A stretch of DNA of 64,000 bases, taken from the sequence record PQ826431.1. One strand, given 5' to 3'. Origin of the DNA: a phage. The position numbers and the translations under genes are program-made. This document shows positions 3,226 to 35,813 of this stretch, piece after piece. A model generated the notes under the pieces. It saw only the letters and a list, made by a program, of their open reading frames with translations, did no database searches and had not been told where the DNA came from. Within the stretch, counting starts at the first letter, position 1. Each line of letters begins with the position of its first letter.

Positions 3226-3608
3226 AAACAGAAATCATTATTGAAATCATCAACGGCTATAAAGAAGCCTTTATTTTTGCTGAATCAGCAAGGGATCATG
3301 AAGGTAATTTTATTGAATACTTAGACTATTATGATTTTTCTCCTGGTGCGGATGAACGGATCGCCCAGGATGTAACAGCCTTTATTAATGCTAATCTTGC
3401 CGCTATCTCTGAGGCAATGAGCGACGGCGCAACAGCCATCCAGATCGGGAGTGATTTACATTTTACCCGTAACGGTCACGGCATAGGCTTTTGGAATCGC
3501 CCTGAAATATACACCACTAACACGGCAAACCGCTTAACCAGTGCCGCCGAGGTCATGCCGGACGTGTCGGCTTACATTGGGGAAGATAATTTGATTTATA
3601 TAGAATAA
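3222..3608 (+). CDS. hypothetical protein (128 aa)
   Basis: ORF track; start overlaps upstream stop (coupling). Confidence 0.55.
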   Translation: MKTEIIIEIINGYKEAFIFAESARDHEGNFIEYLDYYDFSPGADERIAQDVTAFINANLAAISEAMSDGATAIQIGSDLHFTRNGHGIGFWNRPEIYTTNTANRLTSAAEVMPDVSAYIGEDNLIYIE

Positions 3609-3614
3609 AAAGTA

Positions 3615-3673
3615 TTGACACCGATCCCCAATATGTTACTATTTACCACGTGGGCGGGAAATGGTTTCCCGCC
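3615..3673 (+). promoter_or_regulatory. promoter (-35 TTGACA) plus 5' stem-loop GGCGGGAAA-TGG-TTTCCCGCC
   Basis: sequence motifs. Confidence 0.45.
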
Positions 3674-3696
3674 AGGTAATCAAAAAGGTAAATACT

Positions 3697-4086
3697 ATGC
3701 GCAACCTGGTTTCTGTTTCTAACGTTGAAAAATTCCAATCTTTACAGGGTATCATTAACAACGTAGCGCCTTTTTTAGTCAATGGCTTGATTGCAAAGAT
3801 GAAGAATAAGCATCATGCGGCATGGTCTGCTTACTGCTTTGATAATGATGAAAAAGCGGCTGAAATGATGTTAAATATGCTGTTAGACAGTGTAGAATCA
3901 TCTTTACCGGAAAACATCGCAGAAGAGATCACCTATCGTTATAATATGGCGATCACTTACCAGGAAGTGGCACAGTTCAACATGATGGATGATGACGAAC
4001 AACAGGATCAAGAAATGTTTTGGGAGTATGCAGATCGTCAATCGGCTTTTGATGAAAAGTTAGCGATGTATTATAACGAATATTAA
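3697..4086 (+). CDS. hypothetical protein (129 aa), acidic C-terminus
   Basis: track ORF trimmed to ATG after RBS AAAAAGGTAAATACT. Confidence 0.6.
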   Translation: MRNLVSVSNVEKFQSLQGIINNVAPFLVNGLIAKMKNKHHAAWSAYCFDNDEKAAEMMLNMLLDSVESSLPENIAEEITYRYNMAITYQEVAQFNMMDDDEQQDQEMFWEYADRQSAFDEKLAMYYNEY

Positions 4087-26393: not shown

Positions 26394-27047
26394 CTATACC
26401 AGACTTTCAAGGTATTTGTCAAGGGCTTCTTGATCACCTTGACAAACATAGCAACGGAAGTCTTGAGCCGAAGGTTGTTTATTTTCATCCCAATCCCAAT
26501 AAACATTACCTTTATAACGCGAGCCAGGGAACTCAAAAGAGGCTGTATGTGTAATGTATCCTGGGCCACCAGTGAAATCACAGAATGAGAATTGAGGGTA
26601 TGCCGCCTTTACTGCCTCAATAAACCAAGCTTTACGATCTAAAGCTTCATTGATGCTATACGCATGTCTCTCCATTTCTTCCCACGTTTTCCAGACACTT
26701 CTCTCATCAGGAGAAAAGACAAGCCATTCTGGAAGGTATAGAGTGTCATAGTAATCATCATATTCGATCTCGGAGGCGCACGAAGCTGACTCCTCCAGTT
26801 TTGAGTAATCAAAAGCAGAATATACCCACCAACCATCTTCCAGTAACGCTTTGATAGGGACGAAGCCTTTATCAGCATATTGATCGAATTGTTTGACACG
26901 GTGGCTTGTGCAGTCTTCAAACTCACATTCTAAACGATATGCACCTTTTCGACGAGCCTCAAGACCGTGTGTACTGAAAATAACAACACTTCCTTCACCA
27001 TCATTACGATCTACTTGATAAGCAACCACTGGTTTTGAATTTGACAT
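26394..27047 (-). CDS. hypothetical protein (217 aa)
   Basis: ORF track. Confidence 0.55.
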   Translation of the reverse strand: MSNSKPVVAYQVDRNDGEGSVVIFSTHGLEARRKGAYRLECEFEDCTSHRVKQFDQYADKGFVPIKALLEDGWWVYSAFDYSKLEESASCASEIEYDDYYDTLYLPEWLVFSPDERSVWKTWEEMERHAYSINEALDRKAWFIEAVKAAYPQFSFCDFTGGPGYITHTASFEFPGSRYKGNVYWDWDENKQPSAQDFRCYVCQGDQEALDKYLESLV

Positions 27048-27730
27048 TATTTCTCCTTATCTAGAAGATTGTTAGACAAAAACACTGCACGAGCAAAACC
27101 ACGTGCGGTTAGTGATCTAAGTTGTTTTGTTTTTGCACTAGCTCCACCTAAGCTTTTCCAACCCCAGAAGCAGCCTATATGATCTACTGGTTTCTTCACT
27201 GGTTGAACAAAACCATTGCCGTGCCAAATACAAGTTTTCTTTGTATACCCATCACGGGTAGGCATTTTAGGATGAAAACTTCCTTCCTCTTCAAACAAAT
27301 ACCCACCATACTCATAAGGATCAAAGTAAAAATCAGGTTTACGCCATAAGGTTGAAAGTTTACCTACTGGGTTTTCAATCATCCAAGGAACATTATATTT
27401 GTTACCCAAAGCTTCCACTACACGAATATTAGCTAAAGCTTCATCTAATTCCTCTGTGCTACGTTCGTGTTTGCTACCACTACCTGCTAACATAGTGCAG
27501 GGTGGAAATCCAAAAATAATATCGGGTTTAGGTATCCCATGATCTTCAGGGTTGAATGTAGAATCTATCCAGGCATTCACATAAGTTATGTTTGGGTGCT
27601 CCATCCTAACCTCGTATTTACCGTGATCCCCTTCATCAGCGTTTACACAAAAACACTTGTGACCTGCTTCGGCATAACGTAACACCATGATCCCAGATCC
27701 GTCAAACATAGACAAAACTGTTTTACTCAT
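27047..27730 (-). CDS. C5-cytosine methyltransferase-fold protein, short (227 aa), Pro-Cys-Thr in place of Pro-Cys-Gln
   Basis: motif I-like FDGSG, motif IV-like DIIFGFPPCTMLAGSG, motif VI-like ENPVGKL; track ORF trimmed to ATG after RBS GGAGGGG. Confidence 0.5.
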   Translation of the reverse strand: MSKTVLSMFDGSGIMVLRYAEAGHKCFCVNADEGDHGKYEVRMEHPNITYVNAWIDSTFNPEDHGIPKPDIIFGFPPCTMLAGSGSKHERSTEELDEALANIRVVEALGNKYNVPWMIENPVGKLSTLWRKPDFYFDPYEYGGYLFEEEGSFHPKMPTRDGYTKKTCIWHGNGFVQPVKKPVDHIGCFWGWKSLGGASAKTKQLRSLTARGFARAVFLSNNLLDKEK

Positions 27731-28118
27731 TACCCCTCCATTCAAGACAAGCCATAACTTTACGCCAATCACTTTCTGTAAGAAAAATCTCGTTTGCTTT
27801 CTTCCACAAATCTAAATCGTGAAGGGTTGGAATACGATATGTTAGTTCACAGAATCTATGCTCTTCTTCTGTAATATAACCAAAATGCAGAGCCACATCG
27901 TGAAACCAACACCAACCATGCATCTCTCGAACAACATGGTCATGCTGAGACATTGTTTTATGCCGTAAACCTAACCAACAAGGAACAGATACTTTAGTAG
28001 TCTTTAATCTGTGATCAACAGTATTAGAGTATTCAATAATAGCTGTCAGTTTCAATCGTGCTTTTTCTAAATCCTCATGCGTCACTTTGAAATAACTTTC
28101 TGAAAGATATCCACACAT
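27723..28118 (-). CDS. hypothetical protein (131 aa)
   Basis: track ORF trimmed to ATG after RBS GAAGGAGG. Confidence 0.5.
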   Translation of the reverse strand: MCGYLSESYFKVTHEDLEKARLKLTAIIEYSNTVDHRLKTTKVSVPCWLGLRHKTMSQHDHVVREMHGWCWFHDVALHFGYITEEEHRFCELTYRIPTLHDLDLWKKANEIFLTESDWRKVMACLEWRGNE

Positions 28119-28119
28119 A

Positions 28120-29061
28120 TTAATAACCTCCTTCAAAAGGCTTTACTACATGTTGATTAGCTTTAAAACGTTCAACATAGTCGTTTTCGCCCATGTTTTC
28201 ATATAGCTTAGTAACAACATAAAAGTTTTCCCAAGCATATTCCCTAAACCAACCACTAGTGATGGATGTGCAGACTTTAGATAAAGCCATTATAAAACTT
28301 TGCTTAGGGGTTGGACCTCCGATCTCTCCACCGAAAGGAATTTGTGAACGTTCCAAAGCCAAAACACACGCTTCTTCATAAACACCTAACAGGCGCACAT
28401 GTTTTGGTTGAGCAAAAAACTTTTCTTTGCTGGTCATAACTTCACTTCCATCTTTCATATAAGATTTATATGCCGGAGCATCCATTACCGCGATTGCTTC
28501 ATGGATAGAATCATGATCATAAACATACGGAACCTCATCACCTTTAAAAAAGTCTTTACTTTTTACGTTTAAGTTCGGATGAGAGTAAGTGTATGTTTCT
28601 TTCTCACGCAACTCATAAATACTCTTAAGATTTTCTGGGATCTTTGCGCCCAGTGACCGCATGAAATGAATATCTTTCATAGTTTTAAAGAAGTGAGGAC
28701 TATCCTTTTTAAAACGATGACTCATTTTAAGAAGGTAGAGCACATCTAAAGGAGCAACAACATGTCCAGCGTAAGTTCGACGAACATCATCAGAATCTTC
28801 ACAATAACTAATCAAAGCTTCTGTGCTATCTCCTTGAGAAGCAATATCGTATTCCAAATGTGCACCAGCTATCATTTTGACATGGCCTTTGTTTCCTTTA
28901 CGTTCTACAAGTTCAACAAACTCCTCTTGAGAGAACATTTTTGATAATTCTTCCCACTCTTGTTCTGTACACAGGTAATCTAAATCTACACAAGGGCGAT
29001 ACAAGTCTTTTCCCATGTCCATAGCATGAATTTGCAATGCACGGCTACCAATTAACACCAT
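28120..29061 (-). CDS. hypothetical protein (313 aa); possible nucleotidyltransferase-like N-terminus
   Basis: ORF track; N-terminal LIGSRAL...DLD pattern only weakly resembles NTase GS...D-x-D motif. Confidence 0.5.
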   Translation of the reverse strand: MVLIGSRALQIHAMDMGKDLYRPCVDLDYLCTEQEWEELSKMFSQEEFVELVERKGNKGHVKMIAGAHLEYDIASQGDSTEALISYCEDSDDVRRTYAGHVVAPLDVLYLLKMSHRFKKDSPHFFKTMKDIHFMRSLGAKIPENLKSIYELREKETYTYSHPNLNVKSKDFFKGDEVPYVYDHDSIHEAIAVMDAPAYKSYMKDGSEVMTSKEKFFAQPKHVRLLGVYEEACVLALERSQIPFGGEIGGPTPKQSFIMALSKVCTSITSGWFREYAWENFYVVTKLYENMGENDYVERFKANQHVVKPFEGGY

Positions 29062-29091: not shown

Positions 29092-29120
29092 AGTTTATCA
29101 AGCTTCCAGATTCCTGTCAA
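29092..29120 (-). promoter_or_regulatory. promoter on minus strand (TTGACA-17-TAAACT)
   Basis: reverse-complement reading; upstream of 28120-29061 gene. Confidence 0.5.
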
Positions 29121-29141
29121 TAAAAAACCCGCCGAAGCGGG
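29121..29141 (-). terminator. intrinsic terminator (CCCGC-UUCG-GCGGG + U6) on minus strand
   Basis: UUCG tetraloop hairpin followed by U-run in minus-strand RNA; abuts promoter. Confidence 0.6.
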
Positions 29142-29151
29142 TTATTATTTA

Positions 29152-29424
29152 CTAACACATTGAGGAAGAAGAGATCCAAACACCTCTTGTGGTTAAACCA
29201 TTTTCATCCAACTCTACACCATAATCTTCACAAATGAAATCAATATAGTGATCTGCGGCTGGCGTTCCTGTAGGGTAATAAGTTTCTCCGTTACCGTAGT
29301 CACCTATCCAAGCTTGTTCCTGAAACTGTTCACAAAGTTCTTCAATCTCCTTACGGAACTTTCTTTGTGCTTGTTCCATCTCTTTAACTTTCTTTTTTAT
29401 CAGCAGTTCGCCTTCAGACTCCAC
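29152..29424 (-). CDS. small acidic protein (90 aa) with C-terminal GVW-x-SSS-x-C tail
   Basis: ORF track (GTG start); tail shared with 29434 and 29939 ORFs. Confidence 0.5.
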   Translation of the reverse strand: MESEGELLIKKKVKEMEQAQRKFRKEIEELCEQFQEQAWIGDYGNGETYYPTGTPAADHYIDFICEDYGVELDENGLTTRGVWISSSSMC

Positions 29425-29433
29425 AATCTCTCC

Positions 29434-29652
29434 TTAACAGCTACTACTGTGCCAAACGCCTTGAGAATTAACGACGAAACCATCATCACCTTCACCATAA
29501 CAAGAAGAGGATTGCCAATCTTCAAAACAGATTGCGTCATTTTCTAAACTAAGACCAAAACCAGCATCTTCAGCTTCTTTTGTAAGTTCGTCCACTAAAG
29601 CCATAATAGCTTGGGCTTTTTCAGTTAATTCTTCAACATTACGATCACTCAT
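29434..29652 (-). CDS. small acidic protein (72 aa) with C-terminal GVWHSSSC tail
   Basis: track ORF trimmed to ATG after RBS AGAGGAGAAATACTA. Confidence 0.5.
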   Translation of the reverse strand: MSDRNVEELTEKAQAIMALVDELTKEAEDAGFGLSLENDAICFEDWQSSSCYGEGDDGFVVNSQGVWHSSSC

Positions 29653-29927
29653 TAGTATTTCTCCTCTGGTTGGAAAACTGAACGACAAGCCCACATACTA
29701 GCTTCTTTTAAATGTTTAATAGCACAACGGATTTGATCAATACGTTCGTATGCAAGATCTAATTCTTTTTCTGTGCCGTCAAAAGACCCATGATCTGCTT
29801 CACAATACTCTTCCTCTAAAGCTTTGAAGATTAAACCTAAACGCTCTTCTGCATCTTTAATAGCGTTAACCTTGCCAATCTTATCGTCAGTATGCGCCTT
29901 ATAACCTTTGATATCTTCGATTCCCAC
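29652..29927 (-). CDS. hypothetical protein (about 91 aa)
   Basis: track ORF 29652-29966 (TTG, no RBS) trimmed to GTG after AGGAGG; start uncertain. Confidence 0.4.
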   Translation of the reverse strand: MGIEDIKGYKAHTDDKIGKVNAIKDAEERLGLIFKALEEEYCEADHGSFDGTEKELDLAYERIDQIRCAIKHLKEASMWACRSVFQPEEKY

Positions 29928-29938
29928 TTTACCTCCTA

Positions 29939-30136
29939 TTAACAACTTAAAGAAGATGGATGCCAATTTGTTCCAGTATTCTCATTTTCATCTTCTGGAT
30001 CATAATAGCCACCCATCCCATATTCAGGGGAGAAACGGAAACCTTTACCAGTCTCATCTGCTAACTGCTCTGCTTCCGCTAAAGCCTCATAAGCTGCTTT
30101 TACGGCTTCTTCTACTGTTTTAAACTTGGTCGTCAT
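29939..30136 (-). CDS. small acidic protein (65 aa) with C-terminal NWHPSSLSC tail
   Basis: ORF track. Confidence 0.5.
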   Translation of the reverse strand: MTTKFKTVEEAVKAAYEALAEAEQLADETGKGFRFSPEYGMGGYYDPEDENENTGTNWHPSSLSC

Positions 30137-30410: not shown

Positions 30411-30901
30411 AAAACCTCCTCAATCTTGTAGTTTGACTCCATCTCCAACACATTTCCACGAACGTCTCTCCGAAGAAAGGCATAAGCTTTATTAGGTATT
30501 GTAGACTCATATTTAACCATATCTGGCACAGCAAAAGATACTACTACTCCTGCTGGGCTTCTGTCAAGAGCCTTATTAATATTTCTAAGAATATCGTTAG
30601 CCAAGATTTCTGCCAATTCTCCAAGAACAGTTTCGGTTATATCTTTATATCCCATTAAGTATTTGTTGATATCTTTCATCTCTGTATTGTTCAGAGTATA
30701 ATCCAAAGGATAGAAATTCAAAGCGGAGTCACTTTTATGTGTCCACATGAAATGCACCCGATCCGAGCAGAATCGTAACCCTCTTTGAAGAATATCTTCT
30801 ACAACAGGCAGAATTTCTTTTGTCACATCATTAACCATGTTGTAATCTAAGATTTCTGCCAAGTTTGTTCTTTGTTCACCACGTTTACGTTTAGGAATCA
30901 C
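30389..30901 (-). CDS. hypothetical protein (170 aa)
   Basis: ORF track. Confidence 0.55.
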   Translation of the reverse strand: MIPKRKRGEQRTNLAEILDYNMVNDVTKEILPVVEDILQRGLRFCSDRVHFMWTHKSDSALNFYPLDYTLNNTEMKDINKYLMGYKDITETVLGELAEILANDILRNINKALDRSPAGVVVSFAVPDMVKYESTIPNKAYAFLRRDVRGNVLEMESNYKIEEVLWQSSDQ

Positions 30902-31472
30902 TTGTTATTGCCCTCATTACCAAAGGTCGTAGAAAATCGTAAATCTCTTGTTTTGTTTTCCCACGAATGTTTAAACAAGGAACATTATTGGCTTTAGCTA
31001 TCTTCCAAGCCGTAGCTGTTCCACCTTTTGCATCTCCATGTTTATCAGTATTAGCACAAGCCAACAAGAAACATGATGGAGCAGGATTCTCCAAATCTCT
31101 ACCTAACACTTGATGCACATTACGTTGGTGCAATTTTCTAGCACCCTGCTTAAGCTTTTCATAGACTGGGTGAACATCTTTGATCCATTGCACAGAGATA
31201 GCATAGTTCATTGTATCTGGTTTTGCAAGAACAATAACATCCCCTGGAATCTGATTACCTTTGAAATTTTCCCAAGGAACATAAATCTCCTTGTTAGTAG
31301 GATTTTCAGACTCTTGGACACCTGTTTCAAAAGCAGAATCACTACCCTCTGCCTTCCCAGACCTTAATTTAAACCCAAGGTTTGAAAGCCATTTCCCTAT
31401 GCCTACCATCAAAGCCCACTCTTCTTCGGATATGTCTCTACTTCCAACTCCCGTATAGAACAGTTCTGCCAT
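30891..31472 (-). CDS. hypothetical protein (193 aa); weak DprA/SLOG-like Rossmann pattern
   Basis: VGSR...SGKAEGSDSAFETGV resembles DprA/SLOG nucleotide-binding motif; track ORF trimmed to ATG after RBS GAGGTG. Confidence 0.45.
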   Translation of the reverse strand: MAELFYTGVGSRDISEEEWALMVGIGKWLSNLGFKLRSGKAEGSDSAFETGVQESENPTNKEIYVPWENFKGNQIPGDVIVLAKPDTMNYAISVQWIKDVHPVYEKLKQGARKLHQRNVHQVLGRDLENPAPSCFLLACANTDKHGDAKGGTATAWKIAKANNVPCLNIRGKTKQEIYDFLRPLVMRAITSDS

Positions 31473-31479
31473 AATCACC

Positions 31480-31788
31480 TCAACAAGTAATTTCAAAAGG
31501 TGTATACGGTTCCGTATTTCTCATGATCCAAGGACTGCTAGGATTGCTCGGATCATAAGGACCAAAAGGTTTTATGGTCGGTTGTGTTTCTTTCTTCTGA
31601 ATCTCTTCAAAAATACGACGAAGTTCAGAATATTCTTGATCCACCATAAGATTCGGTGCATCTGATTCTACAGCTTGCAGGTTATCTTCCTTAAGAACAA
31701 TCTCACGAACAAGATTAACATCTTCTGTTTCTAAGATAACTTCTTTACGGATATTACCTACACTTTGAATAATTGTAATCTTATACAT
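31480..31788 (-). CDS. hypothetical protein (102 aa)
   Basis: ORF track. Confidence 0.55.
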   Translation of the reverse strand: MYKITIIQSVGNIRKEVILETEDVNLVREIVLKEDNLQAVESDAPNLMVDQEYSELRRIFEEIQKKETQPTIKPFGPYDPSNPSSPWIMRNTEPYTPFEITC

Positions 31789-32531
31789 TAATCCTCCTCA
31801 AGAGTTGAATAAAATTGAAGACCACCGTCCATATCGAAATAAGCAAATGTTAAGTTATTATTGAACACAGATCCAGTATCCATATAAACACGATTCGCAT
31901 TGATAATAGGTGTTTTTACATAAGAGTGTCCATGAAACACATAATCCACACCCATCACAACAGGAAGTTTCATTCCCTCTTTAGCACAGTCTACCATATC
32001 TCTGTCCCACATAAGTGCTTCAGCAAAACGGTTTTCCTGTGTTTTTGTCATCTTCGAAATGTATTCTGGAATATCTGTTACAGGGAGATATTCCAAAGAA
32101 GATGGATACCCACCATGAATAAACGCAAGTTTCATGCCTCTGTAGTTAACAATGAGAACAACAGGTAAATCTTCTGTCATCATTGCTAAGGCTGTAGCTC
32201 CTTCTTCACCACATTCTTCAAAGACCGTATATCCTCCATTTTGATACCAACACTCGTAGTAGCTACGATCTCCTTCCAGCATACCTTTAATCATCATGTC
32301 TTCATGATTGCCACGAATAGCGTAGCGATTGTGTTTACGAGTAAATTCTAAAACACAACGAAAGTTTTGCTTTCCACGGTCAGTAAGATCTCCTAGAGAT
32401 ACAACCACATCTGTATCTCGGATACCTAACTTTGCCTTTCCTTTTTCATACAAATTATAACAACCGTGTAGATCTCCAATTATAAAAAGATCTTGATCGC
32501 TTTTAACAGTAATTTCTCTGTGTATGATCAC
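31788..32531 (-). CDS. Ser/Thr protein phosphatase (calcineurin-like metallophosphoesterase), 247 aa
   Basis: GDLHG, GDLTDRG and GNHE motifs. Confidence 0.85.
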   Translation of the reverse strand: MIIHREITVKSDQDLFIIGDLHGCYNLYEKGKAKLGIRDTDVVVSLGDLTDRGKQNFRCVLEFTRKHNRYAIRGNHEDMMIKGMLEGDRSYYECWYQNGGYTVFEECGEEGATALAMMTEDLPVVLIVNYRGMKLAFIHGGYPSSLEYLPVTDIPEYISKMTKTQENRFAEALMWDRDMVDCAKEGMKLPVVMGVDYVFHGHSYVKTPIINANRVYMDTGSVFNNNLTFAYFDMDGGLQFYSTLEED

Positions 32532-35120: not shown

Positions 35121-35813
35121 TTAAATAGCGGTTCCTTCGAAATCCGCCACATTTACGAGATTAATATTTTCAGATTTAGAAGTCAAGTTGTTTTCTGCAA
35201 CAGATTTTTCTTCAGTATCCGCCTCGTTACCTGCCACGTTACGAGGTTCTTCTTCACCGTAGGGATTACCGAATTTCAAAAGATTGATCAATTCTTCTTT
35301 GGAGAAGTTTTCTAAATCATCATCTGTTAATTCAATAATCTCGTCTTGTTCTTCAATAAATGTTTCACCACCAGAAAAAGCATCTCGCTTTTTAGCTACT
35401 TCCATAGCCTGTTCTGGTGTTGCTCCTGCATCAAGAGCAGCTAAAGCAAAGTCTGACCCGCTTCCTACCGCATAATATTCTTCATCAATCGGATATGCAC
35501 GTGTTGGGTTGTTACCTTCGTGCAGGAAAATACGTCCATCTGGATGAACAACAAGTGCAATAAACTCTTCATCTTCTTTATCTGGATCAGAGTGAATCAT
35601 CAAACCAGGGACAGCATCACGTGCTGCTTCGCACTGTAGATTTTGTTCAAACCATTGAAAGAAAGAAAGCACGGAGGTCAGACGACCAGCACCGCCTACA
35701 AGGTAATCTCCAATTTTTCGGACCTTTTTGAAATTAATAGAATCTACACGTCCACCAAAAGTTACCTTACCGTCACTCAAAATCTTATTTTTGGTCGCAA
35801 TAATTGTCGTCAC
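35121..35813 (-). CDS. HslV-like (proteasome beta-type, N-terminal Thr) peptidase with acidic C-terminal extension, 230 aa
   Basis: MTTIIATKN N-terminus, GGRV, LVGGAGR, AVGSGSDFALAAL resemble HslV/ClpQ. Confidence 0.55.
   Translation of the reverse strand: MTTIIATKNKILSDGKVTFGGRVDSINFKKVRKIGDYLVGGAGRLTSVLSFFQWFEQNLQCEAARDAVPGLMIHSDPDKEDEEFIALVVHPDGRIFLHEGNNPTRAYPIDEEYYAVGSGSDFALAALDAGATPEQAMEVAKKRDAFSGGETFIEEQDEIIELTDDDLENFSKEELINLLKFGNPYGEEEPRNVAGNEADTEEKSVAENNLTSKSENINLVNVADFEGTAI

Follow-up and report, generated by a model that had tools for sequence, protein, structure and literature searches.

Several enzymes with the polymerase beta (Pol-beta) fold act on proteins. In type VII toxin-antitoxin systems such as HepT-MntA, and likewise in GlnE and GlnD, the enzyme nucleotidylylates a protein hydroxyl side chain (MntA, for example, AMPylates HepT), and the nucleotidyltransferase-fold enzymes CitX and MdcG, which are holo-ACP synthases, transfer a nucleotide-derived prosthetic group onto a conserved Ser of the small acidic, largely helical acyl carrier proteins CitD and MdcC. 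In the MenAT1 pair, MenA1, a protein of 68 amino acids (aa) that is encoded upstream and has a long helix and a short C-terminal helix, neutralises MenT1 by blocking its active sites (PMC10435456). Here we analyse a stretch of 64,000 nucleotides (nt) of phage record PQ826431.1 (the window, meaning this whole stretch of Phapecoctavirus DNA), in which three small genes, A, B and C, encode acidic proteins with a common Trp/Ser/Cys C-terminal tail and lie beside the gene of a predicted Pol-beta-fold nucleotidyltransferase. Genes with this tail and genes for this enzyme are found together in many phages. Between positions 27000 and 32600 the window is 99.7% identical to Escherichia phage Mt1B1_P17, and the four genes are placed as follows:

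29152..29424, minus strand: tail protein A, 90 aa, isoelectric point (pI) 4.40, gp219 of Mt1B1_P17 in RefSeq
29434..29652, minus strand: tail protein B, 72 aa, pI 4.05, gp220 of Mt1B1_P17 in RefSeq
29939..30136, minus strand: tail protein C, 65 aa, pI 4.31, gp222 of Mt1B1_P17 in RefSeq
28120..29061, minus strand: linked enzyme, a DUF7277+DUF7275 protein of 313 aa, directly downstream of protein A

The original prediction, made from the DNA letters, was of three small acidic paralogous open reading frames (ORFs) with W-x-S-S-x-C-type ends. Its coordinates were right: all three ORFs are on the minus strand with pI values of 4.05-4.40, and the tail survives a check of starts and stops, which match the coding sequences in RefSeq. 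Protein A has a long N-terminal helix and a GDYGNGETYYP motif and ends in ...GVWISSSSMC (tail codons 29155-29178, stop codon TAG at 29152-29154); homologues of protein A with 42-76% identity keep the tail. Protein B ends in ...GVWHSSSC (terminal motif VWHSSSC, codons 29437-29454) and carries a second, internal copy of the motif, DWQSSSC (codons 29500-29517), followed by YGEG; this two-motif layout is kept in T4-like phages, e.g. DWLNSSCYGEE...KIWYPSSC. Protein C, which is conserved in 77 phage records, has an N-terminal helix and an EYGMGGYYDP motif and ends in ...TNWHPSSLSC (tail codons 29942-29965). The window contains 1089 six-frame ORFs with a length of 30 aa or more, and of these only A, B and C have ends of the form W..[ST]S.{0,2}C; the number expected by chance was 0.019 from amino-acid composition, and 300 codon-block shuffles gave a mean of 0.033 and a maximum of 1. 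The tail observation is therefore correct, and chance is ruled out as its origin.

The description of the three proteins as paralogous held at the level of profiles, as all of them match the PHROGs family phrog_899 over almost their full length (A, E 5.1e-14, residues 9-90; B, E 1.4e-5, residues 4-71; C, E 1.2e-12, residues 3-65), but not at the level of pairwise BLASTP, which gave little beyond the motifs. Because the pairwise comparisons are near-blank while all three proteins match phrog_899, we judge the bodies of A, B and C to be divergent and yet to belong to one fold family. A motif (D/E)-Y-G-x-G-x-x-Y-x-P is common to A, C and most of the tail family. Scans of A, B and C against Pfam, NCBIfam and PADLOC returned nothing significant, and sequence searches of the PDB with one family member and with the family profile gave no meaningful match; the matches to Phi92_gp137 (E 0.13) and Nif11 (E 1.7) in these PDB searches were treated as noise.

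A profile search of 1.84 billion representative proteins retrieved 452 clusters (50% identity) at E ≤1e-3, and in nearly all of them the match extends to the last residue. The original prediction had proposed a multiple alignment and a search for the tail in other phage proteins, and both bore it out: hundreds of homologues carry the tail, which is present in the exact C-terminal form W-x-x-[ST]-S-(x-x)-C in 135 of 144 new representatives. Counted from the terminal Cys in these 144 proteins, the Trp is present in 93%, the two Ser in 95% and 94%, and the Cys in 94%. The count gives S, A or P at the third position after the Trp, then the Ser pair, two variable residues and the Cys. The family consensus is G-x-W-x-[S/A/P]-S-S-(x-x)-C, and A, B and C each carry the C-terminal motif; most members have Gly or Gly-Gly before the Trp. 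Four columns are invariant in an alignment of 52 sequences, namely one Gly, the Trp, the leading Ser of the pair and the final Cys; the second Ser is present in at least 90%, and most members have a second motif, YG(M/N)GG(T)YYP, after the N-terminal helix. One additional residue follows the Cys in 8 of the 144 representatives. Because of these eight, and because the B type has an internal copy of the motif, a free alpha-carboxylate on the Cys is not strictly required.

Other Stephanstirmvirinae and many T4-like phages have homologues too. Mosigvirus MM02 has three tail genes in tandem and Dhakavirus ESCO10 has five; the endings in these two phages are GAWVSSSALC, GGWVASSHTC, QGWVSSSYSC, GFWFTSSMSC and KIWYPSSC, the last of which repeats the two-motif layout of protein B. 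Every named source of the family is either a phage or a contig of phage size that carries a bacterial name in its record. Each of the types A, B and C is kept in more than one phage family, and on this comparison the paralogue types are judged to be ancient and non-redundant. The B-type internal DW-x-x-SSC followed by YGE(G/E) (window 29500-29517; ESCO10 locus L004 3964-4188) resembles a fusion of the tail with the YG-x-G loop of a second unit, a layout that hints that tail and loop are neighbours in three dimensions or across subunits. In the ESCO10 record (OM386655.1; L004 2941-4188) the tail genes, of 65-97 aa, are named 'inhibitor of prohead protease', 'helicase', 'group I intron endonuclease' and 'DNA helicase'; such names look implausible for proteins of this size, and we disregarded them and would not wish them to be propagated.

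The tail is also found on larger proteins (130-230 aa) whose N-terminal parts are unmatched by the family profile and gave no informative Pfam or PHROG family:

L009/L096 4931-5794: larger tail-bearing protein
L016 7953-8393: larger tail-bearing protein
L083 12946-13644: larger tail-bearing protein
L088 (phiPsa267) 3518-3961: larger tail-bearing protein

One group of larger tail proteins is phrog_23943, and in some the Cys is followed by a Trp, the ending being ...GWISSSICW. In Acinetobacter phages there are members that end in ...VWHNSNWSNSE(A/S), with no Cys, beside intact members (L107 2303-2494; L089 3955-4206). These members are apparently decayed or variant, and might serve as natural loss-of-tail variants for comparison.

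We determined how often the tail genes accompany the enzyme gene in 80 IMG/VR loci anchored on enzyme homologues (1.54 Mb). These loci contained 192 tail-bearing ORFs, 182 of which lay on the same strand within 3 kb upstream of the enzyme gene and 4 within 3 kb downstream, and 73 of the 80 loci had between one and six tail copies. Of the seven exceptions, four had a tail ORF 6 kb off on the opposite strand, one had a tail that has degenerated to ...GWAPSNVCW, one was truncated upstream and one had no tail ORF. In the reverse direction, all seven loci picked via diverse tail proteins had the enzyme gene on the same strand and no more than ~2 kb away, and this held even for contigs of 2 kb. The window fits this pattern: its array (29152-30136) and its enzyme gene (28120-29061) share the minus strand. 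Enzyme and tail genes occur as a pair in Phapecoctavirus, Mosigvirus, Dhakavirus, Acinetobacter Twarogvirinae, Pseudomonas Otagovirus, Stenotrophomonas Menderavirus and also on contigs of jumbo phages; the tail copies beside the enzyme gene number four in Otagovirus, one or two in Twarogvirinae and one, downstream, in Menderavirus. Enzyme homologues with 42-47% identity are encoded just downstream of the tail arrays in MM02, ESCO10 and jumbo-phage metagenome contigs. A pattern-limited scan of 185,579 species genomes found only two loci, one of which is a 167-kb contig with two tail genes that is probably a binned phage. T4 has neither the tail family nor the enzyme gene. Its vs.3 and vs.5 genes, which flank vs.4/acb2 and which we suspected of being relatives of the tail proteins, are not relatives, and the likeness of T4 tk.1 (EYGDAETYYE) to the YG-x-G-ETYY motif is weak and not significant. 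No other evidence is as strong as this linkage of the genes, which says that nucleotidyltransferase and tail proteins take part in a single process, a general coupling that we regard as highly probable.

Our prediction for the linked enzyme is an AbiEii/MenT-like nucleotidyltransferase with a Pol-beta fold and an active catalytic site. The best structural match of its predicted fold is MenT1, followed by MenT3/TglT and MenT4, and the enzyme has both motifs of this fold, hG[GS] and DxD, as well as a third carboxylate. The corresponding residues G5-S6, D26-x-D28 and E70 are invariant in 53 enzyme sequences, as are Cys232 and Cys264. Its AbiEii/MenT kinship is not detectable by sequence: against Pfam at E ≤0.1 the enzyme matched only DUF7275 and DUF7277, and not DUF1814/AbiEii, and against PADLOC it had no match. 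The C-terminal DUF7275 domain is strongly conserved, with long invariant stretches such as KVCTSITSGWFREYAWEN.

An AlphaFold2 (AF2) model of protein A, built from the family alignment, has a small alpha+beta fold with a mean predicted local distance difference test score (pLDDT) of 94.2. It consists of a helix (residues 4-34), a beta-sheet (38-40, 47-50 and 82-85) and a terminal helical turn (86-89), with the Trp in the last strand and Ser-Ser-x-x-Cys forming the terminal turn; the pLDDT of the last 10 residues is 88. In the model, then, the tail is part of the folded domain and not a free tag or floppy appendage, and the fold is one without a solved relative. Taken together, A, B and C are real genes, and the small acidic alpha+beta proteins that they encode belong to a widespread family restricted to phages, which comprises phrog_899 and relatives that have diverged further. 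The analysis shows the family, the conservation of its tail, its confidently predicted AF2 fold, the near-obligate linkage, and the predicted fold and catalytic residues of the enzyme.

The original prediction had also proposed that the tail is a shared recognition or modification site, and in this general form the proposal gained support: the tail is the most conserved feature of the family, it occurs on larger proteins too, and its genes are tightly linked to one enzyme gene. A conserved tail, varied bodies and linkage to an enzyme are what would be expected of such a site. The explanation we favour is that the invariant tail is the element recognised by the adjacent nucleotidyltransferase, and that this enzyme uses the tail proteins as substrates. 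One of the two invariant Ser hydroxyls, next to the conserved Cys, would receive a nucleotide monophosphate (NMP) from the enzyme, and the modification would arm or switch between one and six non-redundant small acidic effectors, each with its own body. We favour a substrate role because one tail on many divergent bodies, larger proteins included, suits several substrates of one enzyme; because the paralogue types appear to be ancient and non-redundant; and because the invariant residues bear hydroxyl and thiol groups at the chain end, which would suit the acceptor chemistry of a Pol-beta fold. A physical interaction between enzyme and tail protein, chemistry on the Ser or Cys, and the biological role are steps that we infer from these data. 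As a specific mechanism, NMP transfer onto Ser is plausible but somewhat short of an even chance. Tentatively, and with less confidence, it is possible that the MenT-like enzyme nucleotidylylates or otherwise converts the Ser-Ser-(x-x)-Cys ends of one to six acidic effectors into tagged or cross-linked mimics of nucleic acids or substrates, directed against host defence or translation factors.

Several points weigh against this explanation. The known protein-modifying Pol-beta enzymes mostly target Tyr. The enzymes of the MenT family act on tRNA 3' ends, to which they add nucleotides (PMC10435456). In the AF2 model the tail lies within a well-packed fold, so its role may be a structural one and access to it may be poor. 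Depending on the type, either 0 or 2 residues stand between Ser-Ser and Cys. In four of the enzyme-anchored loci the sole tail ORF lies 6 kb away on the opposite strand, and in one locus there is none. Distant enzyme homologues (28-38% identity) in phages of Gordonia, Streptomyces, Vibrio and Roseobacter are shorter at the N-terminus and lack neighbouring tail genes, and the enzyme family can therefore work without tail genes. Finally, in the window a terminator and a promoter part the array from the enzyme gene:

29126..29143, minus strand: intrinsic-terminator-like hairpin, AACCCGCTTCGGCGGGTT followed by a T run, directly after protein A
29092..29120, minus strand: sigma-70-like promoter, TTGACA, 17 nt, TAAACT, with TG, upstream of the enzyme gene; a consensus match only

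With this hairpin and promoter between them, array and enzyme gene of this phage appear to be transcribed as separate units, although they are adjacent.

The main rival to a substrate role is that the tail proteins are MenA1-like antitoxins or regulators that bind the electropositive tRNA-binding cleft of the MenT-like enzyme. The Ser/Cys tail might then be a pseudo-substrate plug that checks the enzyme or times its activity against host tRNAs. The closest structural precedent is MenT1/MenA1, and the acidity of the tail proteins would suit such a role. However, one enzyme gene can be accompanied by as many as six paralogues, ancient and non-redundant, which is unlike the toxin-antitoxin pattern; the terminator and the enzyme gene's own promoter separate that gene from protein A; and the phages are lytic, with no obvious need for addiction. 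A steric block also leaves the invariant Ser-Ser and Cys unexplained. The tail proteins resembled MenA1 neither in sequence nor in fold, and a search of the PDB with the family profile at E ≤10 returned no MenA1 chain. We therefore consider inhibition of this kind unlikely, although an adaptor role, chemistry intrinsic to the tail and mere co-location of the genes are all less likely than it is.

If the tail proteins were targeting adaptors, the tail would dock, unmodified, in the DUF7275 domain and the variable acidic bodies would steer the enzyme to RNA or protein targets. A docking surface could be provided by the invariant stretches of DUF7275. The contrast between constant tails and variable bodies is also consistent with adaptors, as is the retention of non-redundant types in several phage families. 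Docking gives no reason, however, for hydroxyl and thiol residues in particular to be invariant, and we regard an adaptor role as improbable.

Chemistry intrinsic to the tail, without the neighbouring enzyme, would take the form of a cross-link like those of ribosomally synthesised and post-translationally modified peptides (RiPPs), a Cys metal site shared by several subunits, or a persulfide arm of the DsrC/TusE type. The RiPP-like options are dehydration of Ser and addition of Cys to give a lanthionine or aminovinyl-cysteine (AviCys)-type ring, or a Trp-Cys link. The S-x-x-C chain end resembles the cores of AviCys and lanthionine precursors, RiPP clusters typically have a tandem array of precursors beside a single enzyme, most members have Gly or Gly-Gly before the Trp, and the family profile matched a Nif11 leader-type protein, though weakly and without significance (E 1.7). 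RiPPs, however, combine a conserved leader with a variable core; in the tail family conservation is reversed, with an invariant tail and a variable body. No dehydratase, cyclase, LanD-type flavoprotein or radical S-adenosylmethionine enzyme is annotated in the 17.6 kb round the array in the RefSeq relative, and Pfam scans of the neighbouring ORFs in the window found no dehydratase, cyclase or LanD-type decarboxylase. The folded domain predicted by AF2, the residue after the Cys in 8 of 144 representatives and the internal motif copy of one type also argue against such chemistry, which is quite improbable.

The array lies in an early region that also contains these genes:

29652-29927, minus strand: Acb2/Vs.4 homologue, PF24729 (Acb2_Tad1_hairpin) 1.8e-16, 65% identical to T4 Vs.4
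27047-27772, minus strand: DNA methyltransferase
30891-31496, minus strand: DprA-like, possibly SLOG-type, protein
35121-35813, minus strand: HslV-like peptidase, ~5 kb from the array

Acb2 is a cyclic-nucleotide sponge that acts against CBASS (the cyclic oligonucleotide-based antiphage signalling system). The Acb2-like gene sits between B and C, and its stop overlaps the start of B (TAATG). Other phages have arrays without it, e.g. L008, in which C-, B- and A-type genes are side by side, T4-like phages and jumbo-phage contigs; because of this absence we read the Acb2 gene as an insertion, not as part of the module. A Sir2-like gene lies ~3 kb beyond the methyltransferase in the RefSeq relative.

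Two explanations remain. The tail proteins might act independently of the enzyme, e.g. as nucleic-acid mimics or inhibitors of host defence, and adjacency would then reflect a shared hyperplastic accessory region. They are small and acidic, a sponge gene is interleaved with them, and these regions are rich in accessory genes. Against this, adjacency on the same strand persists where the surrounding genes wholly differ (182 of 192 tail ORFs, 7 of 7 loci in the reverse direction, and both partners absent from T4), and we give independent action as little credence as chemistry intrinsic to the tail. The weakest explanation, a degron or recognition tag for the HslV-like peptidase as the original prediction had suggested, can be dismissed as extremely improbable: the two genes do share one early-gene region in this phage, but their phyletic spread differs, the peptidase occurring in 234 phage records (Stephanstirmvirinae, Vibrio, Caulobacter, Rhizobium and other phages, with no T4-like coliphage in 25 rows sampled across the ranking) and the tail family being abundant in T4-like phages, Otagovirus and jumbo phages, while the tail lies in a confident fold and the conserved partner that travels with it is the DUF7277+DUF7275 nucleotidyltransferase, not the peptidase.

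Elsewhere the module lies near RNA-repair genes (T4 Rnl1-type ligase, PNKP, RNA ligase 2 with a phosphoesterase, RlaP) or NAD-salvage genes (NAMPT, NadM):

L005 689-3478: locus with RNA-repair or NAD-salvage neighbours
L093 2265-3810: locus with RNA-repair or NAD-salvage neighbours
L095 4991-6004: locus with RNA-repair or NAD-salvage neighbours
L094 1-1779: locus with RNA-repair or NAD-salvage neighbours

The presence of these genes near the module in other phages suggests that it is linked with tRNA repair or counter-defence. As the module lies in early-gene accessory regions, with an Acb2 gene in the window and RNA-repair or NAD-salvage genes in other phages, its role is likely to be in host takeover or counter-defence. 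A gene for a NinI-like metallophosphatase (34-39% identity) also recurs on Phapecoctavirus-like and jumbo-phage contigs, only a few kb from the module; in T4-like phages it is not adjacent.

31788-32531 of the window, minus strand: NinI-like metallophosphatase
L005 8647-9426: NinI-like metallophosphatase
L096 2341-3078: NinI-like metallophosphatase

The families phrog_899 and DUF7275/DUF7277 are already listed by PHROGs and Pfam as uncharacterised families. We found no paper on phrog_899, DUF7275, DUF7277, the RB69 ORF names or the linkage of enzyme and tail, and nothing relevant on MenT-like enzymes of phages; a jumbo-phage survey is silent on the module. If the coupling is functional, nucleotidyltransferase and tail-protein array would form an undescribed two-component module, a first functional handle on phrog_899 and DUF7275/DUF7277, and a phage-side counterpart of the MenT/AbiEii enzymes that bacteria use as toxins and abortive-infection effectors. 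Many of the phages that carry the module serve in laboratory work and phage therapy, among them T4-like coliphages, Phapecoctavirus, and phages of Acinetobacter, Pseudomonas and Stenotrophomonas. Modification of the tail, if it does occur, would be a mechanism undescribed for phages, with its genes in hundreds of well-known genomes (RB69-type, Mosigvirus, Phapecoctavirus and jumbo phages). The substrate hypothesis is directly testable, because the invariant W, S, S and C and the catalytic D26 and D28 are known.

Compared with the systems described so far, the locus is closest in layout to MenAT1 of Mycobacterium tuberculosis, in which a small protein starting with a long helix is likewise encoded directly upstream of the enzyme, and in enzyme length to MenT3 and MenT4 (~290-310 aa); the catalytic carboxylates of the linked enzyme are intact. 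It differs from MenAT1 and AbiEii in being phage-encoded and in having one to six diverged partner genes instead of one, and from MenA1 in that the partners in the window have the invariant W-x-x-S-S-(x-x)-C end and a beta-sheet, which MenA1 does not have. HepT-MntA shares the arrangement of a Pol-beta-fold nucleotidyltransferase encoded beside a small protein partner, but HepT-MntA, GlnE and GlnD modify Tyr, whereas here the putative acceptors are Ser, possibly with Cys, and the partners are arrays of paralogues. As with CitX and MdcG, a small acidic partner with a conserved Ser is encoded near a nucleotidyltransferase-fold enzyme; unlike CitD and MdcC, the tail proteins have no sequence or fold match to acyl carrier proteins, belong to no metabolic operon, and carry their Ser-Ser at the extreme C-terminus beside a Cys. 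The precursor arrays of RiPPs (lanthipeptide, AviCys, Nif11/NHLP) also combine tandem small genes, a common Ser/Cys C-terminal element and a single enzyme gene, but here the whole tail protein is predicted to be folded. The Acb2/Vs.4 and Tad1 sponges are small acidic early phage proteins as well, but A, B and C fail the Acb2_Tad1_hairpin model, which only the ORF at 29652-29927 matches. What is new in relation to the known pairs of nucleotidyltransferase toxin and partner is therefore the combination of phage-encoded genes, arrayed partners, an invariant tail and a fold without a solved relative.

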